In this document: positions 27,445 through 55,914 of the stretch, piece after piece
Layout: every line of letters begins with the position of its first letter
How positions within the stretch are numbered: position 1 is the stretch's first letter
Assembly: GCA_012329065.1 (NCBI GenBank)
Contig: JAAXPZ010000006.1
Span: 12,877 to 76,876 of the forward strand
From: Sulfurovum sp.
GTDB taxonomy: Bacteria; Campylobacterota; Campylobacteria; Campylobacterales; Sulfurovaceae
Direction: 5' to 3'
DNA length: 64,000 nt
Made by a program: the position numbers and the translations under genes
The notes under the pieces: model-generated
Database searches by the model: none
Seen by the model: only the letters and a program-made list of their open reading frames with translations
Told to the model about the DNA's origin: nothing

Positions 27445-27501
27445 ACGATACATTGAAAAGTAACCTGAATTTTAGCTAAAGAAGCTTTAATTCAAATAAG
27501 G

Positions 27502-27578
27502 TGGTACACCCGTCAGGATTCGAACCTGAGACCGCCCGCTTAGAAGGCGGGTGCTCTATCCAGCTGAGCTACGAGTGC
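27502..27578 (-). tRNA. tRNA-Arg (anticodon TCT)
   Basis: 77 nt, anticodon loop CTTCTAA, D-arm GCTCAGCTGGATAGAGC, T-loop TTCGAAT, encoded CCA. Confidence 0.9.
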
Positions 27579-27620
27579 ACAAATACAATAATCAGCAATC
27601 TATATACTAAAGTTAAACCA

Positions 27621-27697
27621 TGGTACGCCAGAGAGGACTCGAACCCCTAACCCTCAGATCCGAAGTCTGATGCTCTATCCAGTTGAGCCACTAGCGC
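27621..27697 (-). tRNA. tRNA-Arg (anticodon TCG)
   Basis: 77 nt, anticodon loop CTTCGGA, T-loop TTCGAGT, encoded CCA. Confidence 0.88.
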
Positions 27698-27731
27698 ATC
27701 TTCTGTCAGGTTATGCTTTACCAAACTTAGA

Positions 27732-27808
27732 TGGGGTGGATGACGGGGCTCGAACCCGCGACATCCTGTGCCACAAACAGGTGCTCTACCAGCTGAACTA
27801 CATCCACC
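27732..27808 (-). tRNA. tRNA-His (anticodon GTG)
   Basis: Anticodon loop TTGTGGC. An extra 5' G(-1) pairs with C73, the hallmark of tRNA-His. Encoded CCA. Confidence 0.93.
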
Positions 27809-27853
27809 ATCAATAACTGCATAATTATTATATTGAAATATTAAATATCTAAA

Positions 27854-27930
27854 TGGTCGGAGTGAAAGGACTCGAACCTTCGACCCCCTGGTCCCAAACC
27901 AGGTGCGCTACCAGACTGCGCTACACTCCG
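27854..27930 (-). tRNA. tRNA-Pro (anticodon TGG)
   Basis: 77 nt, C1-G72 pair, anticodon loop TTTGGGA, encoded CCA. Confidence 0.93.
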
Positions 27931-37105: not shown

Positions 37106-38434
37106 ATGAGCATTGGAAAGTCTGTACTTTCAGAACTAAAAAAAGAACTCAATCAAAACGAATACGATAAATATCTAAAAAATATACATTATGATGAGAT
37201 AAATTCAAGAAGTGACATTGCTATCTTTACTGCTGCCAACATAATCATTGCAAAATGGATAAAAACAAAATACAGAGATAAAATTGCACATCTTTTTGAG
37301 ATACAAAGTGGCATCAAGCCCCAAGTGGACATCGTTGTTGGAAAAATAGACAAAAAGACAAAAAAACGCATTTCTGTCAAAGAACATAAAACTGGTACAA
37401 AAAGTACTCATCTCAATCCTTCATTTACTTTTGAAAGCTTTATAGTAGGTGGATCCAACCAGTTTGCTTATACCACAGCAAAATCTGTAGCAGAAAAACC
37501 TGGTATGCAGTACAATCCACTCTTTATATATGGAGGTGTGGGTCTTGGAAAAACACACCTTCTTCAGGCTATAGGGAACTTTCAAGTAGCTCAAGGGAAA
37601 AAAATCATATACACAACACTAGAACAGTTTATGAACAAATACATATCACATGTCAAATCACAAACTATGGATAGATTTAGAGATCATTTTAGAGAGTGTG
37701 ACCTTCTTTTAATTGATGATATTCAATTCCTTAGCAGGAAAGAGCAAACTCAAGAAGAATTCTTTCATACATTTAATGAACTTCATCATGCTAAAAAACA
37801 AATTGTCATCACTTCAGATAGACAGCCAAATAAAATTGCGGGTCTTGTAGATAGGCTTAAGAGCCGATTTGAATGGGGACTTATGGCTGATATACAGCCG
37901 CCAGAACTAGAAACCAAAATTGCCATTATAGAGAAAAAATGTGATCTTGACGGAATAAAACTCAACAATGAAATCATCAATTATATAGCTACAAATATGG
38001 GTGACAATATTCGCGAGATAGAAGGTACACTTATAAAATTAAATGCTATGAGCAGTATGTTAAACCAAGATATCACACTCGAGTTTACGAAAACTGCAAT
38101 AAAAGATCAACTAAAAGAAAAACAAGAAAATGTTAGCATTGATCATATAGTAAAGATAATATCAAAAGAGATGAATGTAAAGCCGTCAGATATTAGATCA
38201 AAAAAAAGAACTCGTAATGTAGTTAACGCAAGACGAATTGTCATCTATTTAGCACGCAATCTTACGCCAAACTCAATGCCTCAAATTGCCCAATATGTAG
38301 GAATGAAAGATCATACAGCCATATCTCATGCTATGAAAAAAATCAACGAAATTATTGAAAGTGATGAAAACTTCAAAGTACTACTTGAAGAGTTTTCAAA
38401 TAAAATAGGAACAACACCAAAGAAAAATGAATAA
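37106..38434 (+). CDS. dnaA: Chromosomal replication initiator DnaA
   Basis: AAA+ GGVGLGKTHL, LLIDDIQF, and domain IV (ARRIVIYLAR...G.KDHTAISHA). Confidence 0.97.
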   Translation: MSIGKSVLSELKKELNQNEYDKYLKNIHYDEINSRSDIAIFTAANIIIAKWIKTKYRDKIAHLFEIQSGIKPQVDIVVGKIDKKTKKRISVKEHKTGTKSTHLNPSFTFESFIVGGSNQFAYTTAKSVAEKPGMQYNPLFIYGGVGLGKTHLLQAIGNFQVAQGKKIIYTTLEQFMNKYISHVKSQTMDRFRDHFRECDLLLIDDIQFLSRKEQTQEEFFHTFNELHHAKKQIVITSDRQPNKIAGLVDRLKSRFEWGLMADIQPPELETKIAIIEKKCDLDGIKLNNEIINYIATNMGDNIREIEGTLIKLNAMSSMLNQDITLEFTKTAIKDQLKEKQENVSIDHIVKIISKEMNVKPSDIRSKKRTRNVVNARRIVIYLARNLTPNSMPQIAQYVGMKDHTAISHAMKKINEIIESDENFKVLLEEFSNKIGTTPKKNE

Positions 38435-38587
38435 AAAAAAGATATAATCTTATATGTGAAAAAGTGTGAATAAGTTAAAAATATATTATGGGTAAAATTA
38501 TTCATAATCTAGGTAGCTAGTTAGGTTTTTCACATTTTCACCAAGACCTACTACTACTACTAAATTTATTTAAAATAAGAGGGAAAA
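38435..38587. other. Probable oriC core (DnaA boxes, DnaA-trio-like repeat, AT-rich unwinding tract)
   Basis: TGTGAAAAA 38455-38463, TGTGAATAA 38465-38473, TTATTCATA 38498-38506, TTTTTCACA 38526-38534, TTTTCACCA 38535-38543, (CTA)5 38548-38562, and an AT-rich tract 38563-38580. Confidence 0.7.
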
Positions 38588-39655
38588 ATGAAGATAAAAG
38601 CTGATAAACAAATTATAGAGTCTATATTAATTAATCTACAACCTTTTTTAGAAAAAAAAGATGCTAGTCAAATTACATCACATATCTTTTTTAAAACAGA
38701 AAATAATCGTTGTATTATTAAAGCAACAGATTCTGAAATAGGTTTAGAAATAATTACTGACAATTTCAATATAGAACATGAAGGATCATTTACCGCTAAT
38801 GGTAAAAAGCTTTTAGATATTGTTAGAATACTCAAAGATGAAGAAATAATATTAGAGGTACTTGAAAATACTCTCTTAATTAAACAAAAAAACTCAAAAT
38901 TTAAATTGCCCACCTTTGATGCTAATACTTTTCCAACTTTTCCTGACATAGATGATAAACCTGAAATAAAATTAGATTCTTTTAATTTAATTAAAAACTT
39001 AAAAAAGATTTCTCCAGCTATTGATACTAATAATCCAAAATTTGAACTAAATGGTGCATTAATAAGCATAACAGAGTCAAATACTGATTTGGTAGGTACT
39101 GATACTCGACGACTAGCTATAGCTTCTATCCCTGGAACAGTGGGGAAAGAATTATCTCTCATACTTCCTAAAAAAGCGATTTTAGAAATCCAAAAGCTGT
39201 TTCTAGATGAAATCACTATCTACTATGATGAAACTACGCTAATTGTTTCTAATGAAAATTATTTCTTTTTCACGAGATTGATAAATGGAAAATTTCCAGA
39301 CTATCAAAGAATTATTCCAAGCAGTATTAAACATCAAATCAAATTACCTAAAAGAGAGATGCTTGAAGCAATCAAAATGATTACAACTATATCTGATGAT
39401 ATTAAAATATCTTTTCGAAGTGATACTATACTTTTTAATTCTCTATCTTCTGATAATGTTGAAGCAAAAACTGAAATTGAATTAGATACAGGACTTTCTG
39501 AAGTATTTGAAGTTTCGCTAAATAGTAAATATATTCTTGATTTTCTTTTTCAAGTTGACGGCGATACATTTGAAATTGGTTTTAATGAACCAACACTACC
39601 ATTTTTAGTCAAAGATGATAATTTTATGACTATTATTATGCCAATCGTTGCATAA
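38588..39655 (+). CDS. dnaN: DNA polymerase III beta sliding clamp
   Basis: Position after dnaA, 355 aa, three-domain clamp pattern (..DTRRLA.., ..[10 protein letters not shown]). Confidence 0.95.
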
Positions 39656-39668
39656 AATAGTGGATAAA

Positions 39669-41312
39669 ATGAATGAAGAAATTAAAACTAAATATATATT
39701 TGTAACAGGTGGAGTACTAAGCTCACTTGGTAAAGGTATCACTGCTGCTAGTATAGGAACACTTTTAAAATCATCAGGACATCGTATAGTGGTATTGAAA
39801 CTTGATCCATATATCAATGTAGATCCAGGGACTATGTCGCCCTTGGAACATGGGGAAGTGTTCGTTACCAAAGACGGTGCTGAGACAGATTTAGATCTAG
39901 GTCATTATGAAAGATTTTTGGATACTTCACTAACACAAAACAATAATTTCACTACAGGTCAAGTATACAAAACAGTAATAGAAAATGAGAGAAAAGGAAA
40001 ATATCTTGGTAAAACAATCCAAGTGGTTCCACATATTGTCAATGAGATAAAAGAACGGATATTTCTTGCAGGAAAGGAAAAAGATATATTAATTGTAGAG
40101 CTTGGGGGTACAACCGGAGATATTGAGGGATTGCCATTTCTTGAAACAATTAGACAGATTAAACATGAGTTAGGCAAAACAAGCGTTATGAATATCCATG
40201 TGACACTTTTGCCGTATATCAAAGCAGCAGGTGAACTTAAAACAAAACCAACTCAACATTCAGTACAAGAACTTCGCCGTATTGGAATAGCTCCACATAT
40301 GCTAGTACTCCGTGCGGAGGTACCAGTGACTAAGGAGATTAAAGACAAAATAGCCTTTTCTTGTGATGTAGATGAGGATTCTGTTATTGTCGCTGAAGAT
40401 GCTTCTACCATCTATCAGGTACCACTTAATTTTCTTAGGCAGGATATTCTTACTCCTATTTGTAAACAATTGGAGTTGGAGAATTGTCAACCAAAAATGG
40501 ATGAGTGGACTGGCTTGGTACATAAAATCATACAGCCATCTGCTGAAATTAAAATCGCTTTTGTAGGTAAGTATTTGGATCTCAAAGAGTCTTATAAGTC
40601 ACTGACAGAAGCCTTTATCCATGCAGGTGCACATACAGATACTAGAGTATCTATCAAGTGGGTTGATAGTGAAAAGATTGAAGAAAATGAGGCAAAAAAA
40701 TATTTAATTGATGTAGATGGTATTTTGGTAGCTGGTGGATTTGGATCTCGTGGAGTTGAAGGTAAAATTAGAGCTATTCAATATGCTAGAGAAAATAAAG
40801 TACCATTTTTAGGGATTTGTCTTGGTATGCAGCTTTCTATGATAGAGTTTGCTAGAAATGTCATAGGGCTTGAAGGTGTAAACTCTGTAGAGTTTGACAA
40901 AAAACCAAAAAATCCTATTATATATCTTATAGACGAGTTTATAGATGCCAGCGGTTCTAAACAGGTTAGAACCACAAAATCTCCATTGGGTGGAACCATG
41001 AGACTGGGTGAGTATGAGTGTGAGACCAAGGAGGGATCAGTACTCAGAGAAGCCTATGGCTCTAAAGTAATTTATGAAAGACACAGACACAGATATGAAG
41101 CAAATCCAGTATACCGTGATGCACTAGAAGCTGCTGGCATGGAGATCACAGGTGAATCTAATGGTCTTATAGAGGCAGTTGAGGTAAAAGATCATCCATG
41201 GTTTTTAGGCGTTCAATTTCATCCAGAGTTTACTTCAAGACTACAGCATGTCAATGAGTGCATATTGGCATTTATAGAAGCCTCTCAAAAGCATGCAAAA
41301 GAGAATGACTAA
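39669..41312 (+). CDS. pyrG: CTP synthase
   Basis: [15 protein letters not shown], and the GATase domain with GICLGMQ and HRHRYE. Start set to ATG at 39669; the tracked ORF begins at 39648. Confidence 0.95.
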
Positions 41313-42888: not shown

Positions 42889-42959
42889 ATTTATATTTTA
42901 TTAGGTTTCATTAAGATTTATCTATTAAGATTTGGTATAAACTATAAAAAAGAGTAGAA

Positions 42960-43613
42960 ATGGTTCAAATCTTAATGATAGAAGATGATATAGAATTTGC
43001 TACACTTTTGACAAATTACCTGAATGGATATAACATAAATGTTACTAACTATGCAGATCCTTATCTAGGGCTTAGTGCGGGTATAGAAAAATATGATTTG
43101 CTCATCTTGGATCTTACACTACCAGGAATAGATGGACTAGATGTGTGTCAAGAGGTTTGTGAAAAATACGATATTCCTATTATTATCTCTTCAGCTAGAT
43201 CAGACTTGAGTGACAAGGTGCTTGGCCTAAAGCTTGGAGCTGATGACTATCTACCAAAACCTTATGAGCCACAAGAGCTATATGCCCGTATCCAGTCTCT
43301 TTTGCGACGATACAATAAATTAAATACAGAGCCTAAGAATTCTATTGATAAATTAGAAATAGATAAATCAAGGCAGGTTATTTTATGGCAAAAAGAGGAT
43401 ATGAATCTAACTCCTGCTGAATATGAAGTGCTTCAGCTTTTGATTAAGAATAGAGGCAATACAATATCAAAAGAGCAGATATTATATGATTCAGATATCT
43501 TTCAAGAAAGCAATGATAATTCACTTTTCGTAATCATGAGCAGATTGAGAAAAAAATTAGACTCTAGTATTACTATTAAGAGTGTACGAGGCATTGGATA
43601 CAGGCTTTCATGA
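42960..43613 (+). CDS. OmpR-family response regulator
   Basis: Receiver domain (DL.LPG.DG, KP) and winged-helix output (LTP.E...L, GYR). Confidence 0.9.
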   Translation: MVQILMIEDDIEFATLLTNYLNGYNINVTNYADPYLGLSAGIEKYDLLILDLTLPGIDGLDVCQEVCEKYDIPIIISSARSDLSDKVLGLKLGADDYLPKPYEPQELYARIQSLLRRYNKLNTEPKNSIDKLEIDKSRQVILWQKEDMNLTPAEYEVLQLLIKNRGNTISKEQILYDSDIFQESNDNSLFVIMSRLRKKLDSSITIKSVRGIGYRLS

Positions 43614-44839
43614 AACTATATAGAAAAATACAGATTATATTTCTCATAGCTTCTTTTTTTATAGTGGCATTCTTTATTGCTTATTTTTATGTACAAAAAA
43701 AAGATGATATTACAAAGAAGCAGGAAAGATACTACCAGATAGGCTTTTTAATAGACAATACGCATAAGGTATCAGACTTGAATATGAGCAACCCAACAAT
43801 GCAAAAGATATTAAGTGAAAGTAGGTTTGTTAATATAGAACAAAAAGAAAAAATCCAAGATATACTCGATAAAGGCATAGTGGAGTATAAAAAAAATATG
43901 CCTTATGCTAGCTTTAAAGTATTGAGAGTCTATGGAGATTTTTATCTGTATATTAAACATAAAAATTATACAGTACTTCTTTATGATACAAAAAAACGAT
44001 ATTTTATTAAAACAACAGTCAGTTTATTTATCACAAGTCTATTATTTTTATTATTTTTATATTTCTGGCTTATGAGGAGCCTTAGTCCCTTTAAAAAACT
44101 TTATAAAAAAATACAAAAAGTCATTGATGGGGACTTGGCAGTATCCCTCAGAAGCAATAAAAAGGATGAGATAGCAGAAGTAGCCAATGCCTTTGATGAC
44201 GCTCTTAGAAAATTAGAAAAATTAATCAAATCAAGGCAATTTTTTCTTCGTACTATTATGCACGAGCTTAAAACCCCTATTGGAAAAGGAAGGTTTTTGA
44301 ATGAATTTTTAGATGATGATACTCTAAGGGATGGTTATGACAGGGTTTTTGATAGACTGCATCTACTTGCAGAAGAGTTTTCAAAAATAGAGAAAATGCT
44401 CTCGGCAAACTACATGCCAAAGATTAGTAAATGTAATCTTTTAGATGTCGTCAACAATGCAGTTGAGTTGATGATACTAGACAAGGAAGAAGAGAAAGAA
44501 TGTATTAGTATCTGCGAAAAAGAAAGTCAAGTAATAGATACGGATTTTGAACTATTATCCTTGGCAATAAAAAATCTGATTGACAATGCTATCAAGTACT
44601 CAATTGACCATAAAGTTGATATCACACTTGCAAAAGATGCTATTTTGATTTCAAGTTATGCCGAAGAGTTACCATATCCTTTGCACTCATATCTAGAGCC
44701 ATTTAATCAGTATAGCAATGGCTTAGGTCTTGGTCTTTATATTGTTGACACTATAGCCTCTTTACTAAATTTGGACTTTGGATATCAGCATAAAAATAAA
44801 AGAAATATATTTTTACTCTCCATGAGGAATGAGGGCTAG
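43610..44839 (+). CDS. Sensor histidine kinase (2 TM, HAMP, HisKA, HATPase)
   Basis: H-box MHELKTP, N-box DNAIKYS, G-box GLGLGLYIV. Overlaps the regulator gene by 4 nt. Confidence 0.85.
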   Translation: MKLYRKIQIIFLIASFFIVAFFIAYFYVQKKDDITKKQERYYQIGFLIDNTHKVSDLNMSNPTMQKILSESRFVNIEQKEKIQDILDKGIVEYKKNMPYASFKVLRVYGDFYLYIKHKNYTVLLYDTKKRYFIKTTVSLFITSLLFLLFLYFWLMRSLSPFKKLYKKIQKVIDGDLAVSLRSNKKDEIAEVANAFDDALRKLEKLIKSRQFFLRTIMHELKTPIGKGRFLNEFLDDDTLRDGYDRVFDRLHLLAEEFSKIEKMLSANYMPKISKCNLLDVVNNAVELMILDKEEEKECISICEKESQVIDTDFELLSLAIKNLIDNAIKYSIDHKVDITLAKDAILISSYAEELPYPLHSYLEPFNQYSNGLGLGLYIVDTIASLLNLDFGYQHKNKRNIFLLSMRNEG

Positions 44840-44921
44840 CCTATTAAGTCCCATTAAGAAAAGAGAAACATTCGTTTAGTTGCTTCTTCCATACTTCGTC
44901 TATAAAAAACGAGGAGAAAAA

Positions 44922-44966
44922 ATGAGAACAGATAGTATCAATTTCTTTAGGAAAAAATCATGCTAG
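44922..44966 (+). CDS. Candidate 14-codon upstream ORF (MRTDSINFFRKKSC)
   Basis: GAGGAG SD 5 nt upstream of ATG at 44922. Its stop TAG (44964-44966) overlaps the ABC ATPase start at 44960. Confidence 0.2.
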   Translation: MRTDSINFFRKKSC

Positions 44967-45649
44967 AGACCGTAGCAAATATTCAAAAGGTGTGTAAAAG
45001 CTATTATCTTGGAAAAGTAGAAATAAAAGCACTCAAGCAAGTAAGCCTACAGGTTCCTTCAGGGAGTTTTACTTTTATAGTGGGCAAATCAGGAAGTGGA
45101 AAAAGTACACTGCTTAATCTGCTAGGTGCGATTGACATCCCTACAAGTGGCTATATAGAAATAAATGGCGTCAAGCTATCTGGATTAAATGATAACAGTC
45201 TTTCTGACTTTAGAGGTGAATCAATCGGTCATATCTTTCAAAATTTTAATCTTATTCCAGTTTTAAATCTATATGAGAATATTGAGTATCCCCTATTGTT
45301 GCAAAATATACCTAAAAAGGAGAGAAAATTTACTGTTAATGAGTTTATCGAAGCAACAGGACTTAGTGGATTAGAGAAGCATTTGCCATCTGAGCTTAGT
45401 GGCGGACAAATGCAGCGAGTCGCCATAGCAAGAGCACTAGTAAAAAAACCCTCGATAGTCTTGGCAGATGAGCCTACTGCAAACTTAGATTCTGTAACGG
45501 GTGGAGAGATTATATCTTTAATGCTGGATATGAAAAAACAGTATAGAACAGCCTTCGTCTTCTCTACTCATGACAAAGAGATACTCAAAGAGGCAGATGA
45601 TATATATACTCTTGTAGATGGAACAATGGAGGATAGTTATGACAAATAG
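44960..45649 (+). CDS. ABC transporter ATP-binding protein (LolD/MacB-type)
   Basis: Walker A GKSGSGKST, signature LSGGQMQR, Walker B VLADEPT. Confidence 0.9.
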   Translation: MLETVANIQKVCKSYYLGKVEIKALKQVSLQVPSGSFTFIVGKSGSGKSTLLNLLGAIDIPTSGYIEINGVKLSGLNDNSLSDFRGESIGHIFQNFNLIPVLNLYENIEYPLLLQNIPKKERKFTVNEFIEATGLSGLEKHLPSELSGGQMQRVAIARALVKKPSIVLADEPTANLDSVTGGEIISLMLDMKKQYRTAFVFSTHDKEILKEADDIYTLVDGTMEDSYDK

Positions 45650-47000
45650 TATAAAGATAGCTTTTAGGAATACATTGAGAAACAAAAGGCGTACGCTGCT
45701 TAGTGTATTGGCTATTGCTATAGGAGGTGTTGCCTCCTTGCTACTGGGGGCATTTGTTTCAAGTATTTATTATGGCATACAGACAGGCATTTCCAAAGAT
45801 AGTGGTCATCTGCATATTCATAAAAATGGATTTTTTAAATATGGTATCGCAAAGGTGGGTCAGTACGATATGGCAAATTATCTAGATATCATACAAGAAA
45901 TCAAAAATAGCGACACAAAAGATGAAATCAGCGTTGTCACTCCAACACTCTCTATTGCCGGTATTGTAAGTAATTCATATAGAGGAACATCTCAGACCTT
46001 CATGGGTATTGGACTTGTGGCAGATGATCAAAAGAAGATGCAAGAGTGGGATGGTTTTGGATTGAATCTAAAGATACAGGATATTCCATTTGATGTAATA
46101 AATGATAAAAAAGGTCTGATGGGCAAGGGATTGGCAATAAATTTGGGTATGTGTGAAGAGCTGGGTCTTGACGGATGTTTGAAAAGTGAAAAGAACTCTA
46201 CACAAGAGGTAGATCCAGAAATAAGTAGCTTTGCTATTGATATCTCATCATTGGATAAATCAGTAGTAGACATTATGGTAGCTCCTGCCCAAGGTGCTCC
46301 AAATATCTCCTCGTTAGCTATAGCAAAAGTGTGGCAAAGCAGACAAAAAACAGTAGATGATAGGTTCATAGCTATGCCATTGGAAGTGGCACAGTCCCTA
46401 TTTTATGGTAGTGATTATAAAAAAGTAAATACTGTTACAGTACAGCTAAAAGATGTGCAAAAGACAGGACAAATAAAGCAAAATCTTCAAAAATTATTTG
46501 AAATTAAAGGATGGAACCTAGAAATCATTACTCTCTCTGAGTTTGCACCACAGTTTAAAAAAGTATTAAGCATGTTTGGCTTTATATTCATATTTGTTTC
46601 ATTGATTATCGCCGTTATTGTTCTTTTTACAGTCTCTAACACAATGACCATGAGCGTGATGGAACGGTATAAAGAGATAGGTACACTTAGGTCTATGGGT
46701 CTAAGAAGATGGGGGGTCAAGAAATACTTTATTATAGAAGGAGCCATTATAGGTGTCTTTGGTGCAACATTAGGTGTGACCATAGCATACATAATAGCAA
46801 CTACCATAAATAATTCTGGACTAACTTGGTCTCCTCCTAGTGGCAGTGATGAGCAACTCTTGATATTACAGTTGACTCAAAATCCGATGCTTATAATAAC
46901 TGTATGGGTTTTGTTGGTAACCGCTAGCGTGATATCATCATTTCTGCCTGCAAAAAAGGCATCAAACATGCCTATTATTGATGCACTAAGATACAATTAA
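45639..47000 (+). CDS. ABC transporter permease, FtsX/MacB-type (4 TM with a large periplasmic domain)
   Basis: N-terminal RNKRRT..TM, long extracytoplasmic segment, C-terminal FtsX region (E.GTLRSMG). Start set to ATG at 45639, with GGAGGA 5 nt upstream. Confidence 0.85.
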   Translation: MTNSIKIAFRNTLRNKRRTLLSVLAIAIGGVASLLLGAFVSSIYYGIQTGISKDSGHLHIHKNGFFKYGIAKVGQYDMANYLDIIQEIKNSDTKDEISVVTPTLSIAGIVSNSYRGTSQTFMGIGLVADDQKKMQEWDGFGLNLKIQDIPFDVINDKKGLMGKGLAINLGMCEELGLDGCLKSEKNSTQEVDPEISSFAIDISSLDKSVVDIMVAPAQGAPNISSLAIAKVWQSRQKTVDDRFIAMPLEVAQSLFYGSDYKKVNTVTVQLKDVQKTGQIKQNLQKLFEIKGWNLEIITLSEFAPQFKKVLSMFGFIFIFVSLIIAVIVLFTVSNTMTMSVMERYKEIGTLRSMGLRRWGVKKYFIIEGAIIGVFGATLGVTIAYIIATTINNSGLTWSPPSGSDEQLLILQLTQNPMLIITVWVLLVTASVISSFLPAKKASNMPIIDALRYN

Positions 47001-47024
47001 AAATTTAGATTAAAGGAGAATAAA

Positions 47025-47792
47025 ATGAAAAAAATAATACTGATACTCATGGTTCTTGTAGTCACTATATCGAGCGATGGAGCTATTTCTGCAAAGAACA
47101 TTGTCTCAAAGAGTGACAAAATACGAAACATAGGAAAGTCTTTTTACCAGAAATGCTATATCACATCATATATTAATGCAAAAAAGAGTGAGTCTATGGA
47201 GGTAAGCATCTACTCAAAGATTTCTCAAAGCTCTGGTCAGTACAGAACATTGGTGCGAATCACTAAACCAAAAAAAGACAAGAACAAGATCATTATGAGG
47301 CAAAATAAAAAGCTTTGGCTTTATGATCCAAATTCAAAAGCAAGCATCCAGATATCTCCAAGACAAAGATTGCTTGGGCAGACATCAAATGGTGATGTAA
47401 TGACTAGTAATTTCTCTCTTGATTACAAAGCAAGGCTGATTAAATCTGAAAAAATCAAAGGTGGTGACAAAAAGATGCACAATTGTTATCTGCTTGAGCT
47501 CAAAGCACATAATAGCGATGTGAGTTACCCTTTTATAGAGTATTGGGTAGAAAAAAAGAGTTTTCGTCCAATTAGGGGTAAATTTTATACAGCAGGCAAG
47601 AAGCTACTTAAAGATGTTTATTATAGAAAATATCGCTCAGTTATGGGAGCTACAAGACCCACAGAAGTACTTATTTTTGATGGATTTAGTAGAAACAAAG
47701 CGACAAAAATGAAATTTTCAGGAGCTAGATCCATGAGTATTCCAGACTTTTGGTTCCGTAGGTCATATTTGCCTAAGTTTAGCGGGAAATAA
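47025..47792 (+). CDS. LolA-like outer membrane lipoprotein-sorting family protein
   Basis: Signal peptide and beta-rich sequence. The KLWLYDPNS....ISP pattern fits my recollection of the LolA_like family. Confidence 0.65.
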   Translation: MKKIILILMVLVVTISSDGAISAKNIVSKSDKIRNIGKSFYQKCYITSYINAKKSESMEVSIYSKISQSSGQYRTLVRITKPKKDKNKIIMRQNKKLWLYDPNSKASIQISPRQRLLGQTSNGDVMTSNFSLDYKARLIKSEKIKGGDKKMHNCYLLELKAHNSDVSYPFIEYWVEKKSFRPIRGKFYTAGKKLLKDVYYRKYRSVMGATRPTEVLIFDGFSRNKATKMKFSGARSMSIPDFWFRRSYLPKFSGK

Positions 47793-47793
47793 A

Positions 47794-49077
47794 ATGAGAG
47801 CTATACTTATAATCCTGTTTTTATCCCTAGTGCTGCATAGTGAAAATTTTGACTTTTTTGATAAGGATGAAGATCAGACAAGAGAAAGTACAACAAAAGA
47901 GCAAAATGCAACACATAAAGAAGATGGCAACTCTCCTTTTAAGACAAATATTGAACTTATTCATAAAAGTGATTTAGAAGGAGAGGACGATAGTCAAAAT
48001 ATCACCTTTAATCAAACCTTCTCTGATGCGAGATTACATATCGACTATGATGTTTCTAGCGATTTGGATGACTACAGGGTTAATATAAAAGAGGCATATA
48101 TCAAAAGCAAGCTCTCTTCCAATATCTTTTTTGATATCGGTCGCATAAATATTAGAGAAGGTATCTCTTTGGGATACAATGCTACGGATTATTTCAAAGG
48201 AGGAGGGATAAACTTTGATTCCCTTGCTACAAGTGACAGGCAGGGAAATAGACTGGGTTCATTGTTGGCACAAGGCACTCTATTTTCTGATAATTATACG
48301 CTCAAACTGATATATTCTCCAAAGATTAATACAGATCCTGATGCATTTTGGTCTGATAAGGAACATATAGGATTGGGATTGGATACTACGAACTATACTC
48401 ATCGGTACGGCATTGATCTTGATGTAAAACTCTTTAAAAGTCTAAGCTCTTCATTTGCCTTACACAACAATGAAGAGGGATGGCACTTTGGAAGCAGACT
48501 AAGCTATGCAGAAGAAGGTTGGATACTTTATAGTGAAAACTCTATCAAAAAATCGTACAGCAGTGTCTCTAAAGCAATCTCCGAGCTAGAGTTTTCGGAT
48601 ACACTTAAAGAGAATTTTGATATCGATAAAAAATATATATACCAAGGGAGTCTGGGTGCAAGCTACACAACAGAAAACAATACAGCGATCTCTTTAGAGT
48701 ATATATACAACAGTGGTGGCTTGGATGAGGATGGGTGGAACAGATATTTTGAGCTATCAAGTATAAGTGCGGGACTAGAGAGACAACTATCGGCTGTAAG
48801 AAAATATCATAAGGTCAATGAGGAGATGATGGGAAAGCATACGCTGTTTGGCCGCATTTCGATAAATGATATATTTTTAAATACAGATTTTAGTTTTTTT
48901 AGTTTTGTAGATCTGTCTGATGGTAGCTCTATGTCTCGTGCAACTGTTAAATATGATTATAACGAAGATATCATTTTTGAAGCTAGCATAACAAAAATGT
49001 TTGGCGAAGACCAAAGCGAGTATGGCTCGCTGGATGATGATACGATAGCAACTGCCAAGGTAACATATCATTTTTAG
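47794..49077 (+). CDS. Putative outer-membrane beta-barrel protein
   Basis: Signal peptide, alternating hydrophobic beta-strand pattern, C-terminal aromatic residue (..VTYHF). Confidence 0.5.
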   Translation: MRAILIILFLSLVLHSENFDFFDKDEDQTRESTTKEQNATHKEDGNSPFKTNIELIHKSDLEGEDDSQNITFNQTFSDARLHIDYDVSSDLDDYRVNIKEAYIKSKLSSNIFFDIGRINIREGISLGYNATDYFKGGGINFDSLATSDRQGNRLGSLLAQGTLFSDNYTLKLIYSPKINTDPDAFWSDKEHIGLGLDTTNYTHRYGIDLDVKLFKSLSSSFALHNNEEGWHFGSRLSYAEEGWILYSENSIKKSYSSVSKAISELEFSDTLKENFDIDKKYIYQGSLGASYTTENNTAISLEYIYNSGGLDEDGWNRYFELSSISAGLERQLSAVRKYHKVNEEMMGKHTLFGRISINDIFLNTDFSFFSFVDLSDGSSMSRATVKYDYNEDIIFEASITKMFGEDQSEYGSLDDDTIATAKVTYHF

Positions 49078-49113
49078 AAGTACCTTTGTGGGTAAAATAT
49101 ATGCTTTGTGGAA

Positions 49114-50067
49114 TTAGATAGGTACCACTCTGATTTTATCATAAAGCTTCTCTTTTAGAGCAGTTTCTATGGCAAACTGTGTGCCCATACTTGCCGTACC
49201 ACAGCCAGCACAGGCTCCTAGCCATCGAAAATATATATCGATATCATCTCCGTTGTCTTTGACATCAAGTATTTCCATGTCTCCCCCATCCATGACCAAG
49301 TACTGCCTGATAGAGTCATCAATAACCTTATTGATAGCGACTACTCGCTGTTCCATATTCATTTCCATAAATGGCATATCAAGAGGAGCCAACTTTGACT
49401 CTTTTTCAGCGTCAATCTCATCACGAGTAGCTTTAAGGATATCAACTAGATACTGAGATCTTTCTTCAAATAGGGGACTAGGTTTTACGGAGGCTTTGTC
49501 ATATAGTCCCGCTTTTGTATAGTGAGTAAGTGTTTCTATGTCTTGGATATCATGCAGTTTGATTGTCTCCTTGATGGCAGATATTTTCATGGGACTATCA
49601 TTGGATACTCGTATGTCGTTGGGATCTTTTGCTTCATCAAGATATGTTTGACTCGCTTCTTTGATGGCATCTAATACAAGAGTAATAGCATAGTTTTCCT
49701 CTTCAGGTAGAGCAGGAGTGCTTGGATTGTCGCGGAGGAAATACTCTAGACCTTTATAGCTAATCTCTGCTGCCTTGTCTACGGTTTTGCTACGGCAAAG
49801 CAGGGCTGCCATATCATTGGCAGCGATAGAGGTTACTGATCCAAAATAGGTAAATCTAGCCAATGCGATAGTATCATCACTCTTATCTATCGCCCAATAA
49901 AGTGTAATCTTTTCCCCAGTCTTTTCACTGCCATACTCATATATAAAGAGATCAGCGTCTAGCTCTTTTATCTCTTCGCTTGAGATGTCGCCACAATTCT
50001 TTGGACTAGTTATCAGCATCTCTACTTTGTTGCCATATTCAGCTGTATCTGTTATTTTGCTACTCAT
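49114..50067 (-). CDS. NifU-like three-domain protein lacking the IscU-domain and central-domain Cys ligands (Nfu CxxC retained)
   Basis: Full-length resemblance to Helicobacter-type NifU (ITLYWAID, ARFTYFG, THYTKAG, YLVDIL, C-terminal YFRWLGACAGCG). The expected ligand Cys positions read T, S, A, S.D and D..S. Confidence 0.8.
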   Translation of the reverse strand: MSSKITDTAEYGNKVEMLITSPKNCGDISSEEIKELDADLFIYEYGSEKTGEKITLYWAIDKSDDTIALARFTYFGSVTSIAANDMAALLCRSKTVDKAAEISYKGLEYFLRDNPSTPALPEEENYAITLVLDAIKEASQTYLDEAKDPNDIRVSNDSPMKISAIKETIKLHDIQDIETLTHYTKAGLYDKASVKPSPLFEERSQYLVDILKATRDEIDAEKESKLAPLDMPFMEMNMEQRVVAINKVIDDSIRQYLVMDGGDMEILDVKDNGDDIDIYFRWLGACAGCGTASMGTQFAIETALKEKLYDKIRVVPI

Positions 50068-50076
50068 CTTTTGTCC

Positions 50077-51180
50077 TTATCTTGCTCTCTCTGTTCTAAT
50101 AATCTCTACTGATTTTTTCAGCTTCTCGATCGTGTAGTCCATCTCTTCTTGGCTAGTATATCTGCTCAAAGCAAACTCCACCAAAGTATGCTTGTAGATA
50201 CTGTCTGAAGCAGTGTTTTCTGTCAATGCTCTACCTTTTTCGCCTGAAACACTGATGCCATATCGATTTAATTCCCACACTAGGGCATCGCTGGAAACAT
50301 CTTTAAACCCGACTAGTAGAGTGTTTGGTGTCCTTAGCGCCCATGGAGTGATGATGAGGTGATCTTCTATCTCTCTGATGCTCTCTTCGAGTGCATCTCT
50401 AAGTTCTCTCGTGTCTTCCATCTCAAAAGCTTGCGAATCTACTGCAAGCTCCAATGCTTTGCCTAAACCAACAATTCCAACTAAATTATTGTTGGGTTGT
50501 ATCAGGTTTGGCAACTCTATACCCTCTTTGATATACAGCATTGCAACACCTGTGGGGCCATGTACTGTTTCAGAAGATAAAGTTAGATAGTCGATATCTA
50601 GCATTTGTACATCAATGGGCAACTTGCCTATGGCATGACTTGCGTCAGAATGTAGAGGCACTCCATGCTCACTGCATATCTGACTTGCTTCATCTATAGC
50701 CATAATGGCACCACTTTGGGCATCTACCATTGTGATAGAGACAAGTGCAGTTTTTGTTGTAATGGTTTGTTTTAGCATATCGGTATCTACAACCCCATCA
50801 CTATTGAGAGGCAGAATGGTAATCCTACAGCCTTGAGATGCAATATACTCTGCTGTTTCTATTACCGTATCACTCTCTGAAGCAGAGAGTATGATTTGAT
50901 TTTTCTGTCCTGTTATGACACTGTTGACATAGATGGATATTAGTAGTCTACAGTGAAGCTCATCGACACTTGATCCTATAGTCACCATATCATTATCTTT
51001 GGCATGTATGGAAGCCTTGATCTTTTCATAGGCTTGAGCAAGAGGGGTTCGGCTTTTTATGGCATCTGCATGTCTTGCTCTGGGATCTGCATAGTGCTCT
51101 ACAAGGCTTTGTTGCATAAGCTCCATTACTTGCACATCAATCTTAGAGGCACGGTTGTTATCGAGGTAAGCTTTCATCAA
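50077..51180 (-). CDS. NifS/IscS-like class V aminotransferase-fold protein lacking the PLP Lys and catalytic Cys
   Basis: YLDNN, HSDASHAIGKLPID and EEMDYTIE blocks align to IscS/NifS. SxHK..GPKG reads SSETVHGPTG, and SSGSAC reads VSGEKG. Confidence 0.8.
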   Translation of the reverse strand: MMKAYLDNNRASKIDVQVMELMQQSLVEHYADPRARHADAIKSRTPLAQAYEKIKASIHAKDNDMVTIGSSVDELHCRLLISIYVNSVITGQKNQIILSASESDTVIETAEYIASQGCRITILPLNSDGVVDTDMLKQTITTKTALVSITMVDAQSGAIMAIDEASQICSEHGVPLHSDASHAIGKLPIDVQMLDIDYLTLSSETVHGPTGVAMLYIKEGIELPNLIQPNNNLVGIVGLGKALELAVDSQAFEMEDTRELRDALEESIREIEDHLIITPWALRTPNTLLVGFKDVSSDALVWELNRYGISVSGEKGRALTENTASDSIYKHTLVEFALSRYTSQEEMDYTIEKLKKSVEIIRTERAR

Positions 51181-51244
51181 TATCCTTAATTAGGAGTAAT
51201 TTAGGGTGATATTACTTGATGCTAGCTTAATTGAGGATAAATTT

Positions 51245-51997
51245 TCATTTCATATAGGGCGATATGATAGATATGACAGCAGTCAGAAATAGAAAAAACA
51301 TAACGGTTTTTTTGAGCTTAGCTTTGTTAAAGCTATTGCCTATCTTTAGACCGATTAGGGCTCCAACTATTACTATGGGTGTTGCCACAATTCCCCATAC
51401 AAAGCTTTGCAATAATGTATCTCCAAATTTCCAGTATAGTAATGCTATCTGCACAGGCGAGGCAAGTAGAAATACGGCTGTGATAAAGGCTCGTGTACGC
51501 ATGACCGTCCAATCATGTGCCATCAGCCAAAGTACAATTGCAGGTCCTCCCATCCCCAGCACCCCCAGCATCACACCACTGGCACCAAAGGCCAATATAT
51601 CCCAGTATAGAGGAAGAGTTTTTCTTGGCTTAAAGGTTATAAAAAACTGAACAGCCAATATGATTAGTAGCATGATTCCTACAAACTGTTTGATGGTATC
51701 TATGTCAAGATTGTTGACTGTATATAGTAGCCATATGCCTATGGGGAGAGTGATGTAGCGAATAGCCATAGGTATCTTAATATCATCCCAGATGATTTCA
51801 TGGCGGAGTTTCCAAGCATTTGTCACGAGCTGTACAAAAATAGGTATCACCGTCAAAACAATTGATTCAGCCAGAGAAAAGCCCGTCCATATAAGTAGAG
51901 GAATGGCCAGCAGATTAAAAGCAAACCCAATCATTGCTTGCGTCATGCTGGAGAAAAAGAGAATGATAGTGGCTATGATGAGTTGTTCTGTTCCCAT
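51245..51997 (-). CDS. TauE/SafE-family anion (sulfite/organosulfonate-type) permease
   Basis: About 250 aa with 7-8 TM helices and the duplicated hydrophobic pattern with G..GMGGP typical of TauE. Confidence 0.75.
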   Translation of the reverse strand: MGTEQLIIATIILFFSSMTQAMIGFAFNLLAIPLLIWTGFSLAESIVLTVIPIFVQLVTNAWKLRHEIIWDDIKIPMAIRYITLPIGIWLLYTVNNLDIDTIKQFVGIMLLIILAVQFFITFKPRKTLPLYWDILAFGASGVMLGVLGMGGPAIVLWLMAHDWTVMRTRAFITAVFLLASPVQIALLYWKFGDTLLQSFVWGIVATPIVIVGALIGLKIGNSFNKAKLKKTVMFFLFLTAVISIISPYMK

Positions 51998-52083: not shown

Positions 52084-53898
52084 TTGAGTGAAAATATTAT
52101 AGGCTATCTGAACAATGATGGCAACATCATCGATACACAGAGTGCAGGGGAGTCCTGTGGAGGTACTGCTATAGAGTTTGACAACAGTAGCAAAGCACTG
52201 GAGCTTATCAGACATTCTACGGCACATTTGATGGCACAGGCAATATCAGAGATTTATGCAGACGCAAAGTTCTTTGTGGGTCCAGTAGTAGACGAGGGCT
52301 TCTACTATGATCTTAGAACCGAAGATAAAATTGGTGAAGAGGATCTAAAAAAGATCGAAAAAAAGATGAAAGAAATCATCAAGAGAAAGTATAAAATTGA
52401 GAAGTATGAGATCAGCAAAGAGGAAGCACTAGAGAAATTTGCCAAGGACGACCTCAAACAAGCGGTACTTTCGCGTATCCCTGACGAGGTTGTCTCAATC
52501 TACAAGCAAGGGGAGTTTGAAGATTTGTGTAGAGGGCCTCATGTACCAAGCCTAAGATTTTTGCATAATTTCAAGCTGACCCGTGTAGCGGGAGCATATC
52601 TAGGCGGTGACGAAAAAGCAGAGATGTTGACTCGTATCTATGGGATAGCATTTGCAGACAAAGAATCAGTCAAAGCATATGTCACTATGATGGAGGAAGC
52701 AAAGAAAAGAGATCACAGAAAGATAGGCACCGAGATGGAGCTTTTTATGTTCAATGAAGAGTCTGGTGCTGGCTTACCATTTTGGATGCCAAGAGGAGCC
52801 AAGCTTCGCCATAAACTAGAGCAGATTCTACATAAAGCTCATCTAATCAGAGGATATGAACCAGTACGAGGCCCTGAGATCCTCAAGGCAGATATGTGGC
52901 GAACAAGCGGCCACTATGCCTGCTATGGTGAAAATATGTATCTTACCACTATTGATGAGCAGGAGTATGGGATTAAACCGATGAACTGTATCGGGCATAT
53001 CCAGATATTTAAGCAGACACAAAAGAGTTATAGGGATTTACCGTTACGATATTATGAGTACGGAGTGGTACATAGACATGAGAAGTCAGGTGTTCTACAT
53101 GGGCTTTTGAGAGTTCGTGAATTTACACAGGACGATGCACATATATTTTGTACACCTGAGCAAATAGCTTCAGAAGTGCTTGATGTGGTTGAGTTTGTAG
53201 ATTCTGTGATGAAGCTCTTTGGTTTTGAGTATACAATGGAGATAGCCACTAAGCCAGAGAAGGCGATTGGTGAAGATGCAGTATGGGATATGGCAACAGA
53301 GGGACTCAAAAATGCACTTGAGGGCAACAATCTACATTATACTATCGATGAGGGCGGTGGAGCTTTTTATGGCCCAAAAATCGATATCAAGATCACAGAT
53401 GCAATAGGGCGTAAGTGGCAGTGCGGAACGATACAGGTGGACTTCAACCTGCCAAAGCGATTTGATGCAGAGTATGTAGCAGAGGACAATACACGAAAAC
53501 AGCCAGTGATGATACATAGGGCTATACTAGGTTCGTTTGAGAGATTTATCGGTATATTGACTGAGCATTATGCTGGAGAGTTTCCGATGTTCTTGGCTCC
53601 AGTGCAGGTGATTTTTGTGCCGATTTCAGCTGTACATGTGGAGTATGCCAAAGAGCTGAAGAAACAGTTATTGCTAGAAGAGATAGATTCAGAAGTTTAT
53701 GATAAGAATGACTCCCTGAATAAAAGAATTAGAATTGCTGAAAAGCAGAGAGTGCCATATGTGGTCATTATAGGTGACGAAGAGGTCGACAAGAGAAGTG
53801 TCGCAATACGCGATAGACGCAAAAAAGAGCAGTATAATTTAAATGAAGATGAATTTATGATACAATTAAAGCAACAAATACAAGAAGGTAGAATTTGA
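52084..53898 (+). CDS. thrS: Threonyl-tRNA synthetase
   Basis: Class II motifs, Zn-site region (CRGPH, HRH), and the anticodon-binding C-terminus. TTG start with AAGGG 6 nt upstream. Confidence 0.95.
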
Positions 53899-54452: not shown

Positions 54453-54899
54453 CTATTTCTGCGAAGCTTTGGTTGTAATGTCATCCAAGGCTTTTACTAT
54501 TTTTCCAATCATCATGCTTCCTTCTAGCTTAAAGTTTTTACTCCATTTTGTAAGGTCTCTATAGACTATCTGCGTTACATTGTTTTTGCTATAAACTAGG
54601 ACTTTTAATGGCAGATCAATAGCAGTCAGTGGGTCTTGCTGTATGAGTTTTGTGCCAATCTTTGGATTTCCGAATAATATGACTTTTGTATCAGCAAGCT
54701 TCAGTTTGACCTTATCTGCACCCTTTTTATGATCTATGATTGTAAAAACTCCTAAGCCACTTTTAGCTTTCGACTCAACGATTTTCTCTATCTTGGATAT
54801 GGTTTCATTGACACCCAGCTCACCAGTCTTGATTATCAAGTCTGATGCACTTAATGCCATTGGTACGACAACAATAAATCCCAATAAAATATTTTTCAT
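54453..54899 (-). CDS. DUF302 domain protein with signal peptide
   Basis: FGNPK.GT.L....L.A.DLPLK.LVY pattern as I recall it for DUF302. Confidence 0.75.
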   Translation of the reverse strand: MKNILLGFIVVVPMALSASDLIIKTGELGVNETISKIEKIVESKAKSGLGVFTIIDHKKGADKVKLKLADTKVILFGNPKIGTKLIQQDPLTAIDLPLKVLVYSKNNVTQIVYRDLTKWSKNFKLEGSMMIGKIVKALDDITTKASQK

Positions 54900-55008
54900 T
54901 TTTTATCCTTCTGTTTTTTTATGGTAACGCATTCTAGCACTACAATATTAATCATACAAAATTAATCTTATTTAGATATGCTAATTTATTAAAACAGGAG
55001 AGTAAATT

Positions 55009-55914
55009 ATGATATCAGATATTACGACAAAATTTAGAAAAAATATACAGAATTTGACAGAATTTGAAAAAGCTGTAATTGTAGACAAGGGGACAGAGAG
55101 AGCATTTACAGGAGAACTTTTAGATATCAAAGAGGATGGAGTGTTTGCCTGTAAGCTCTGCGGTATGGAGCTGTTTCAAGTCAAAGATAAATTTGATTCT
55201 GGTTCAGGATGGCCTAGTTTTGACAATGAGATAGATGGAGCAGTACGCAGAGTGTCTGATGTAGACGGTATGCGAGTAGAAATCGTTTGTGCAAGCTGTG
55301 GCGGTCACTTGGGGCATGTTTTTGAGGGTGAGGGTATGACAGCCAAAAGCACAAGGCATTGTGTCAACTCAGTTTCTTTGGTCTTTAAGGGCTCTGATGC
55401 TAGAAAGAAAGATAAAACAAGTACAAAAAGAGCTTATCTTGCAGGAGGTTGTTTCTGGGGTGTAGAGCATTATCTCCAGCTACTCAGTGGCGTTGAGAGT
55501 GTGATATCTGGTTTTATGGGTGGTCATGTGATGAATCCTGACTATTATGATGTAGTTAAGGGTAGCACAGGGCATCTTGAGACTGTTGAGGTGATATATA
55601 ATGCTAGCAAGATAAGTTATGAAGAGATAGTAAAACATTTTTTTGAGATACATGATCCTGAGCAAAGCAATGGCCAAGGCCCTGATATAGGTAGTCAGTA
55701 TCTATCCGCAGTATTTGTATCCAACGAAGAAGAAGCAAATATAGCAGCAGAACTTATTAAAAAATTGGAAGCCCATGGATACAAAATAGCAACACAGGTA
55801 CTAGCAAAAAAAGAGTTTTTTGCAGCAGACGATGGGCATCAGGACTATTATGAGAGAAAAGGATCATTGCCATACTGCCATGACTTTATTCCTAGGTTCG
55901 ATAGAAGAAAATAG
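55009..55914 (+). CDS. msrAB: Bifunctional peptide-methionine sulfoxide reductase MsrB-MsrA
   Basis: MsrB half: CxxC pairs, GWPSF, RHCVNS. MsrA half: GGCFWGVE. Confidence 0.93.
   Translation: MISDITTKFRKNIQNLTEFEKAVIVDKGTERAFTGELLDIKEDGVFACKLCGMELFQVKDKFDSGSGWPSFDNEIDGAVRRVSDVDGMRVEIVCASCGGHLGHVFEGEGMTAKSTRHCVNSVSLVFKGSDARKKDKTSTKRAYLAGGCFWGVEHYLQLLSGVESVISGFMGGHVMNPDYYDVVKGSTGHLETVEVIYNASKISYEEIVKHFFEIHDPEQSNGQGPDIGSQYLSAVFVSNEEEANIAAELIKKLEAHGYKIATQVLAKKEFFAADDGHQDYYERKGSLPYCHDFIPRFDRRK

Follow-up and report, generated by a model that had tools for sequence, protein, structure and literature searches.

We analysed a 64,000-nucleotide stretch of DNA from Sulfurovum sp. (GenBank assembly GCA_012329065.1, contig JAAXPZ010000006.1, positions 12,877 to 76,876 of the forward strand), referred to here as the window, and found in it a gene pair encoding homologues of the cysteine desulfurase NifS and of the scaffold protein NifU from which the residues that define activity have been lost. 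We call these proteins pseudo-NifS and pseudo-NifU. They are encoded, together with a TauE/SafE permease, by three co-directional and uninterrupted open reading frames (ORFs) on the minus strand that span positions 49114 to 51997. The explanation that we rank first, with a probability of about 0.45, is that pseudo-NifU is an Nfu-type iron-sulfur (Fe-S) carrier in which a dead IscU domain and a dead NifS partner would serve as protein-interaction modules.

Pseudo-NifS (positions 50077-51177, minus strand; 366 amino acids counted from its ATG) is a type-I cysteine-desulfurase homologue that matches the Pfam family Aminotran_5 (PF00266) at 5e-43. Its best match among the structures of the Protein Data Bank (PDB) is Hydrogenimonas thermophila NifS, 5zsp (phmmer E = 3e-75), and the Helicobacter pylori protein 5wt2 also aligned. 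The AlphaFold model is confident (predicted local distance difference test, pLDDT, 91.7; predicted template-modelling score, pTM, 0.90), and Foldseek superimposes it on both of these NifS structures with a template-modelling (TM) score of 0.92. The catalytic residues have gone from this fold. In the alignments to 5zsp and 5wt2 the block around the lysine that binds pyridoxal 5'-phosphate (PLP) reads SSETVHGPTG in place of the canonical SAHKFHGPKG, His having been replaced by Glu and Lys by Thr; the Schiff-base lysine, Lys206 of E. coli IscS, is Thr205 here. The PLP-stacking histidine is Ser (SESD for the canonical EVEHP in the PDB alignments), the GGEHMGGRRSGT loop has been removed by a deletion of ten residues, and the catalytic-cysteine loop STGSACAS is replaced or deleted, with no Cys left and a length reduced by eight residues in the window's clade. 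These changes at the lysine, the histidine and the two loops were proposed by eye in an initial annotation of this DNA, and alignments based on phmmer, hidden Markov models (HMMs) and structure bear them out. The motifs that it quoted, YLDNN, HSDASHAIGKLPID, EEMDYTIE, LSSETVHGPTG, SASESDT and VSGEKG, are all in the translation. To its list we can add the loss of the substrate-binding Arg354 (now Glu), of Asn155 (Ala) and of the phosphate-binding Thr76 (Asp). A lysine or cysteine that was conserved but shifted was sought by three routes, phmmer alignment to the PDB, MAFFT family alignments and a structure-based search, and none was found.

The losses extend through the family, whose members come from Sulfurovaceae and from metagenome-assembled genomes of other Campylobacterota. 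We aligned 78 cluster representatives of pseudo-NifS and 55 canonical NifS proteins with MAFFT, using E. coli IscS numbering; every residue compared is kept in all 55 canonical proteins, whereas Lys206, Cys328, Arg354 and Asn155 are each kept in 0/78 pseudo-NifS proteins, Thr243 (lost in the window protein too) and His104 (Ser in the window protein) in one each, and Thr76 in three. His205 persists in 14 and is Glu in 53; Asp180 and Ser203 are retained in 76 and 72, respectively. In cysteine desulfurases the residues that are strictly conserved at the active site are Lys, His, Arg and Cys (PMC8918507). Pseudo-NifS has residues specific to its own family at the old site, namely Val152-Asp153 (MVD) where the canonical protein has Ala-Asn (ANN) and Trp280 where it has Arg, and among the 78 members no Cys, His or other evident catalytic grouping has become newly invariant. 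Its sequence predicts that pseudo-NifS neither binds PLP nor desulfurates cysteine, and the protein would be unable to make persulfide because it has neither a PLP site nor a Cys loop.

Pseudo-NifU (positions 49114-50067, minus strand; 317 amino acids) matches the Pfam families NifU_N and NifU at about 1e-16 each and retains the three-part layout of its relatives. An N-terminal IscU-fold domain (residues 1-147, positions 49627-50067; NifU_N, 59 bits) has no cluster ligands. It is followed by a central region (residues 148-235, positions 49363-49626) that alignments identify as the remnant of a [2Fe-2S], BFD-like domain, and by a C-terminal Nfu domain (residues 236-317 plus the stop codon, positions 49114-49362) that scores 60.8 bits on PF01106 against a cut-off of 27 and has both cysteines of its Cys-x-x-Cys (CxxC) motif, C286 and C289, intact. 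The phmmer matches of the Nfu domain include the CnfU/Nfu structures 2z51, 2jnv and 1xhj, of which 2z51 is the best match in sequence. Structure prediction had been proposed in the initial annotation; the AlphaFold model of pseudo-NifU is confident as well (pLDDT 89.6), and the two predicted folds are those of NifS and of IscU plus Nfu, with pseudo-NifU matching IscU/ISCU chains at target-normalised TM scores of 0.75-0.84 and also the Nfu protein 2z51. Pfam, HMM and PDB alignments agree with the proposal that both proteins are full-length homologues of the Campylobacterota NifS and three-domain NifU. Neither reaches the curated cut-off of its best NCBIfam model. Pseudo-NifS scores 271.7 bits on the equivalog model nifS_epsilon (TIGR03403) against a cut-off of 587.7, which the canonical Sulfurovum NifS exceeds with 658.2 bits, and pseudo-NifU scores 79.5 bits on NifU_proper (TIGR02000) against 273.3, a cut-off that is strict even for housekeeping NifU, the canonical Sulfurovum protein scoring 235.6. 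The two are therefore clear homologues, yet far from functional equivalogs.

We compared pseudo-NifU with the set of residues that NifU and IscU are reported to require (PMC13066941). At the IscU site Cys35 has become Thr50, Asp37 Glu52, Cys62 Ser77, His105 Tyr126 and Cys106 Ala127, and the four cysteines of the central domain are Ser155, Asp157, Asp190 and Ser193 (approximately positions 49489-49605). The window protein has no Pfam match to Fer2_BFD, whereas relatives in a clade that we term c keep both the match and the four cysteines. Cluster building on the IscU site would be impossible because the site has no ligands. In a census of 143 pseudo-NifU cluster representatives and 79 canonical NifU proteins, all 79 of the latter keep every residue compared, while the three ligand cysteines of the IscU site are jointly absent from 142 of the 143 and the remaining member keeps a single one; taken individually, they are kept in 1, 0 and 0 members. 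The Nfu CxxC is present in all 143 and is the only conserved Cys pair. Alignment and census together uphold the earlier view that the ligands of the IscU and central domains are lost and the Nfu motif kept, and the strings on which that view was based (KTGE, FGSVTS, NYAI, VSNDS, YDKAS and GACAGCG) are all in the translation. The central domain reads Cys-x-Asp...Asp-x-x-Cys in 109 members; another 18 retain the full set of four Cys, and 10 have no Cys there. Such a fixed pattern suggests a remodelled metal site of two Cys and two Asp rather than random loss.

Pseudo-NifS and pseudo-NifU are under purifying selection and are not decaying. Between the window and the 98%-identical strain L085 (we number the loci of relatives with L and their proteins with P), the ratio of non-synonymous to synonymous change (dN/dS) is 0.145 for pseudo-NifS and 0.28 for pseudo-NifU, and between L005 and L087 it is 0.13 and 0.06, respectively. 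The proportion of synonymous differences (pS) greatly exceeds that of non-synonymous differences (pN) in every pair compared, and the ORFs are full-length in all seven loci that were translated end to end. The earlier statement that these are not pseudogenes is in agreement with this range of ratios (0.06-0.28), with the deep conservation of the family and with the confident structure models.

Named relatives of the pair come from Sulfurovum, Nitratifractor and metagenome-assembled genomes (MAGs) of unclassified Campylobacterota. In neighbour-joining trees pseudo-NifU and pseudo-NifS each form a single clade with bootstrap support of 100/100, although the branches are long, and both clades are nested among canonical sequences from Campylobacterota other than Helicobacter. 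Conservation of the degenerate pair across the group, for which the initial annotation had suggested a phylogenetic check, is evident from the censuses, and the trees fit an origin of pseudo-NifS and pseudo-NifU in one old duplication of nifSU. Members of the pseudo family are 50-70% identical to one another, while the 120 best canonical Sulfurovum-type NifU matches are 88-100% identical to their query. The subclades appear to record a stepwise degeneration: clade c has four central cysteines and a NifS loop of full length that is Cys-less; the C-x-D...D-x-x-C pattern is conserved in clade d (Nitratifractor) and in most of clades a and b; and in the window's branch of clade a the last two central cysteines have been replaced by Ser. 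In clades b and f (306-308 amino acids, including a protein named for S. lithotrophicum) pseudo-NifU stands alone, with no pseudo-NifS within up to 10 kb. The window's pseudo-NifU is 100% identical to the NCBI entry 'iron-sulfur cluster assembly scaffold protein NifU [Sulfurovum sp.]', the same source name, 'iron-sulfur cluster assembly scaffold protein NifU', is attached to P0121, P0149, P0187 and others, and pseudo-NifS proteins (P0005, P0016 and others) are named 'cysteine desulfurase'. Judged by the residues that remain, both names are misleading, since neither activity should be possible with these sequences.

Canonical NifSU is found alongside the pseudo form in some relatives. A tblastn search of the 64-kb window for canonical nifSU recovered the pseudo pair alone. 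The MAG VCAW01 carries a clade-b pseudo-NifU (L010) and a canonical pair (L061), and is the only assembly in which we saw both forms; the comparison was drawn from the best 80 of 581 confirmed relatives, the top match among them being 67% identical, and absence from that set carries no meaning. Going by protein names, S. lithotrophicum has the canonical NifU P0356 (2.2 Mb genome) as well as the pseudo-NifU P0187. At 56 canonical loci, wherever the upstream flank is present, a NifS with His, Lys and Cys adjoins a fully liganded NifU. The window proteins are about 44% identical to the canonical Sulfurovum NifS and NifU, and the pair is presumably paralogous to a canonical system in this particular genome.

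Nfu domains act as cluster carriers: a [4Fe-4S] or [2Fe-2S] cluster is bound in bridging fashion and then supplied to apo-proteins. As an Nfu-type carrier, a pseudo-NifU dimer would hold a bridging cluster of either kind on its two CxxC motifs, having received it from canonical NifU or possibly having formed it out of Fe2+ and the sulfide in which the habitat is rich, and would then hand it to apo-proteins; the IscU-like domain and the NifS-like dimer, both dead but probably still bound to each other, would provide a platform for dimerisation, docking or target selection. We infer in this way cluster binding on the Nfu domain, the association of pseudo-NifS with pseudo-NifU, the cluster source and the clients. 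This reading is ranked first because the Nfu CxxC is the sole conserved candidate cofactor site and because there is a precedent in NfuA, where a Cys-less degenerate A-type domain recognises the target apo-proteins (PMC8593673). It is further favoured by the kept folds, by purifying selection and by the recurrence of the design in an unrelated lineage, the second family described below. Pseudo-NifU has the design of such a carrier, a CxxC Nfu domain joined to a ligand-less accessory domain. Its accessory domain is of the IscU type and it scores 21.4 bits on the NfuA HMM (TIGR03341) against a cut-off of 269, so that it would be NfuA-like in its working but outside the NfuA family. A carrier of the Nfu type was also among the functions suggested in the initial annotation, and the survival of the Nfu CxxC as the only Cys pair puts it first here.

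The arrangement of the genes and the retention of a contact residue both bear on whether the two proteins still meet. In clades a, c and d they are always adjacent, and overlaps of 1-4 nucleotides, with overlapping stop and start codons, are common (L004, L005, L088 and L089); coupling as tight as this fits a stoichiometric complex. An N-terminal tyrosine, Tyr4, is needed for formation of the NifS-NifU complex (PMC13066941). Of the 58 pseudo-NifU proteins from clades that have pseudo-NifS, 53 have Tyr or Phe at the equivalent position, compared with only 45 that have Tyr among the 81 from clade b, which has no adjacent pseudo-NifS. Gene coupling and Tyr4 retention, taken together, suggest that the old NifS-NifU interface is still in use.

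Several observations weigh against the carrier reading. The occurrence of pseudo-NifU alone in clade b means that pseudo-NifS is therefore dispensable for at least some members. A small stand-alone Nfu protein, such as that of H. pylori, would suffice as a carrier, and the retention of some 600 extra residues suggests an additional role. The C-x-D...D-x-x-C pattern of 109 of the 143 family members hints at another metal site for which the carrier model makes no provision. The gene neighbourhoods of the family point to no Fe-S client, and the supply of clusters in this genome by canonical NifSU or by SUF would have to be assumed.

The first gene of the putative operon encodes the TauE/SafE (TSUP) permease (positions 51245-51997, minus strand; 250 amino acids), residues 11-241 of which match PF01925 with 66.2 bits against a cut-off of 32.6 (E = 4.5e-18). 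It matched no NCBIfam model, and its substrate is not predictable from the family name. Gaps of 64 nucleotides and 9 nucleotides separate TauE from pseudo-NifS and pseudo-NifS from pseudo-NifU, respectively, no terminator-like site was found between the three genes and the ribosome-binding sites are intact, so the initial description of three full-length, co-directional minus-strand genes with short gaps is accurate. The pseudo-NifS ORF extends to a TTG at position 51180 (367 amino acids); the ATG at 51177, which has AGGA five nucleotides upstream and was also chosen by the gene callers, is the likelier start. Upstream of TauE, in the region common with the divergent thrS gene, lies a promoter-like sequence TTGCCA-17-TATAAT (positions 52096-52124, minus strand) that agrees with the consensus at 11 of 12 positions; it is a consensus match only, and such sites occur across the region as often as expected from shuffled sequence. 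A Fur-box-like operator upstream of TauE was considered and set aside, having about 8 of 19 matches by eye, which is not convincing.

In clade a the usual order is infC-thrS (divergent), TauE, a flavoprotein of 490-492 amino acids, pseudo-NifS and pseudo-NifU (L005, L006, L087 and L089). TauE is upstream of the pair in five of the six loci of the window's subclade that have an upstream flank (L001, L005, L006, L087 and L089), and the flavoprotein gene lies between TauE and pseudo-NifS in four of those five, L001 being the other; L088 has neither gene. The flavoprotein resembles dihydrolipoyl dehydrogenase (L005, 7377-8855; L006, 4102-5580; L087, 4437-5915; L089, 2262-3734), with 319 bits on TIGR01350 against a cut-off of 409, and its redox-active CxxxxC motif reads GGAGIVNGALSSK in L005 and L006, where it has no Cys. 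A copy of it was sought in the 64-kb window by tblastn and no match was found. We considered whether the flavoprotein and the cysteines of the central domain had been lost together, an idea that fails: the pseudo-NifU beside the L089 flavoprotein (P0149, aligned sequence) has no central Cys, and P0144, tentatively matched to L088, keeps one central Cys although that locus has no flavoprotein. TauE is absent near the pair from every locus examined in clades b, c, d and f. Its confinement to the window's subclade makes the link lineage-specific and therefore weak evidence of function; the TauE linkage reported in the initial annotation is real within that subclade, but the sulfur-related role read from it is weakly supported, given the absence of TauE in the other four clades.

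Among the neighbours that recur in several subclades are recJ, pyrG, dnaN and dnaA, which indicate positional orthology and not function. A fused MsrB-MsrA methionine sulfoxide reductase (SelR plus PMSR; 301 amino acids) is a conserved clade-a neighbour, in the window, L001, L005 and L087, and a similar Msr fusion of 322 amino acids lies near the pair in L088. In the window it is found with a DUF302 protein (the latter in the window and L001 only) at 54453-55914, just beyond infC-thrS. Downstream of the operon a block of 6.2 kb (positions 42903-49113) is absent from the 98%-identical L085, in which the pseudo-NifU stop codon abuts that of recJ. It encodes a two-component system (response regulator and histidine kinase), an ABC transporter (ATPase and FtsX permease), a LolA-like protein and a 427-amino-acid protein with no Pfam match, and its G+C content is 0.33-0.35 compared with 0.39-0.41 in the 48-54 kb region that includes the operon. 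The block seems to have been either inserted recently or deleted from L085. The lowest G+C content in the window (0.289, compared with approximately 0.38 overall) is at 38001-40000, and five minus-strand tRNA genes, Leu-TAG, Arg-TCT, Arg-TCG, His-GTG and Pro-TGG, are located at 27361-27930.

Other roles can be imagined for a pair with these properties. The two proteins might act as a regulatory decoy or sensor by binding to canonical partners, pseudo-NifU to NifS, pseudo-NifS to NifU or the two NifS forms in mixed dimers, and so throttle or redirect the flux of sulfur and clusters in response to, for example, sulfide, oxygen or iron, with the Nfu cluster as the sensing element. Pseudoenzymes commonly regulate their active paralogues, the kept folds and the 44% identity to the canonical proteins make cross-binding plausible, the tyrosine that contacts NifS is retained and the canonical and pseudo forms occur together in one MAG. 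We nevertheless consider a decoy unlikely: joint degeneration and translational coupling are a better fit with pseudo-NifS and pseudo-NifU binding to each other, an evolutionary rate so much faster than that of canonical NifU (50-70% against 88-100% identity) would erode a common interface, and the Pfam scan revealed no regulator-type domain or DNA-binding module. Somewhat less likely again is a neofunctionalised module with non-PLP chemistry or a ligand-binding role, working with TauE and, in relatives, with the Cys-less dihydrolipoyl-dehydrogenase-like flavoprotein, perhaps to handle sulfur or metal species that TauE imports or exports. The recurrence of all four genes in L005, L006, L087 and L089, though not in the window, which has no flavoprotein, would suit such a module, as would the family-specific residues Val152-Asp153 and Trp280 at the old pseudo-NifS active site and the Cys-Asp pattern in the central domain of 109 of 143 pseudo-NifU proteins. 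However, association with TauE and the flavoprotein is limited to a single subclade, from which L088 must be excepted, and clades b, c, d and f do not show it; the window, besides having no flavoprotein, has Ser at both of the remaining central Cys positions, and pseudo-NifS has acquired no invariant catalytic constellation to replace the one that it lost.

Assembly independent of any desulfurase, in which the Nfu site would form new clusters directly out of free sulfide and iron, perhaps as the main system in some genomes, seems to us improbable. Sulfurovum lives on reduced sulfur, and the 64-kb window holds no canonical nifSU, both of which would favour it. The IscS of Archaeoglobus fulgidus, an anaerobe of sulfide-rich settings, is also Lys-less and is believed to work as the partner of a scaffold (PMC8918507), and sulfide-dependent minimal systems have been proposed (bioRxiv 10.1101/2024.03.20.586028). 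Unlike the A. fulgidus pair, the window proteins have also lost the ligands of the IscU domain and the Cys of the NifS loop, and a conserved canonical NifS-NifU is widespread in Sulfurovum and co-occurs with pseudo-NifU in VCAW01. That the genes are functionless relics, intact only by chance, is effectively refuted. The loss of all catalytic residues and the faster evolution relative to the canonical copies could be read in that way, but relics would not be expected to show full-length ORFs in seven loci, to number about 78 pseudo-NifS and 143 pseudo-NifU cluster representatives, to have pS so far in excess of pN (dN/dS 0.06-0.28) or to combine an invariant Nfu CxxC with confident structure predictions and intact ribosome-binding sites.

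A second look-alike family emerged when 1.84 billion representatives were searched exhaustively with phmmer and key residues were then checked, a comparison in which 32 of the 149 nearest type-I desulfurase-like representatives deviated at His, Lys, Cys or Arg. It is represented by gene pairs at L090 (4257-6142) and L091 (6001-7943), with the proteins P0440 and P0385, and also by P0405, P0450, P0457 and P0490. As in the window pair, a NifS-like gene without the lysine or the Cys loop lies directly upstream of a gene for a NifU-like protein with a Cys-less IscU domain and an intact Nfu CxxC. The second family differs in that its NifS-like protein has a 'GGG' loop, Asp or Glu for His and Ser for Arg, its NifU-like protein (254-257 amino acids) has no central domain, and its neighbours are genes for pseudouridine synthase, His_Phos_1, biotin/lipoate ligase, FtsW/RodA, S10 and EF-G; sequence identity is 25-31% for NifS, and for NifU it is 27-28% relative to P0235, a canonical reference. 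The gene order at L090 and L091 may resemble that of Chlamydiales, an assignment that the pangenome paper does not settle. The different replacement residues and genomic context mean that the second family probably degenerated independently, and so the same design has apparently evolved at least twice. Four further proteins, P0422, P0446, P0455 and P0500, have Asp, Thr, Thr and Met, respectively, in place of the PLP lysine and keep the His and the loop Cys, which is the state of A. fulgidus IscS; Lys-less NifS/IscS homologues seem to be commoner than the literature suggests. A broader proposal, which we regard as doubtful, is that the non-catalytic NifS-like/NifU-like module is a recurrent machine for handling Fe-S clusters or metal, with a function of its own and at least two independent origins. 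Only the Nfu CxxC survives in both families, and most Sulfurovaceae members have the putative new site of two Cys and two Asp; a candidate function would be a desulfurase-independent complex, tolerant of sulfide or oxygen, that stores clusters and delivers them to particular clients.

In the literature that we could search, no account was found of both NIF partners having degenerated jointly while the Nfu site alone was kept. Fe-S biogenesis is an essential and intensively studied process, and the non-canonical cases reported earlier are A. fulgidus IscS, an inactive desulfurase that still gives a Cys ligand, and NfuA, a carrier in which one domain is degenerate. What is new here is that both partners of a core machine have lost all of their chemistry together, yet have remained coupled and under selection across a bacterial family. 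The look-alike pair in a second lineage suggests that the NifS-NifU interaction itself has a role, structural or in trafficking, that has yet to be described. The window pair offers natural 'separation-of-function' variants with which NifS-NifU binding may be probed apart from sulfur transfer. In addition, metabolic reconstructions of Sulfurovum and related bacteria of vents and caves may be counting a second working NIF system that cannot exist.

Four known systems place the pair in context. The housekeeping NIF system of the Campylobacterota, represented by NifS-NifU of H. pylori and H. thermophila (5wt2, 5zsp), appears to be its direct evolutionary parent, sharing the order nifS then nifU, the three-domain NifU layout and the fold (TM 0.92); it differs in that every residue defining its activity has been replaced or deleted in the window pair. 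The IscS-IscU system of A. fulgidus (4eb5, 4hvk) has a desulfurase homologue that, like pseudo-NifS, has no PLP lysine and has a closely similar fold (TM 0.91-0.93); this IscS has no desulfurase activity, and its proposed function is a structural one alongside the scaffold protein (PMC8918507). A. fulgidus IscS retains the loop Cys as a proposed cluster ligand, binds pyridoxamine 5'-phosphate (PMP) and is paired with a fully liganded IscU, whereas the window pair has lost the loop Cys, the residues that contact the cofactor and the scaffold ligands of the partner. NfuA of E. coli and Azotobacter vinelandii resembles pseudo-NifU in having a Cys-less degenerate domain fused to an Nfu CxxC domain of the functional type, which in NfuA carries a [4Fe-4S] cluster (PMC8593673), but the dead domain of pseudo-NifU is of the IscU type and not the A type, a remnant of the central domain is present and a dead NifS-like partner is encoded next door. 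The plant plastid protein CnfU/NFU2 (2z51) likewise combines a CxxC Nfu domain with a second, degenerate and Cys-less domain; there the degenerate domain is a second Nfu repeat, and the system has no IscU-like or NifS-like component.

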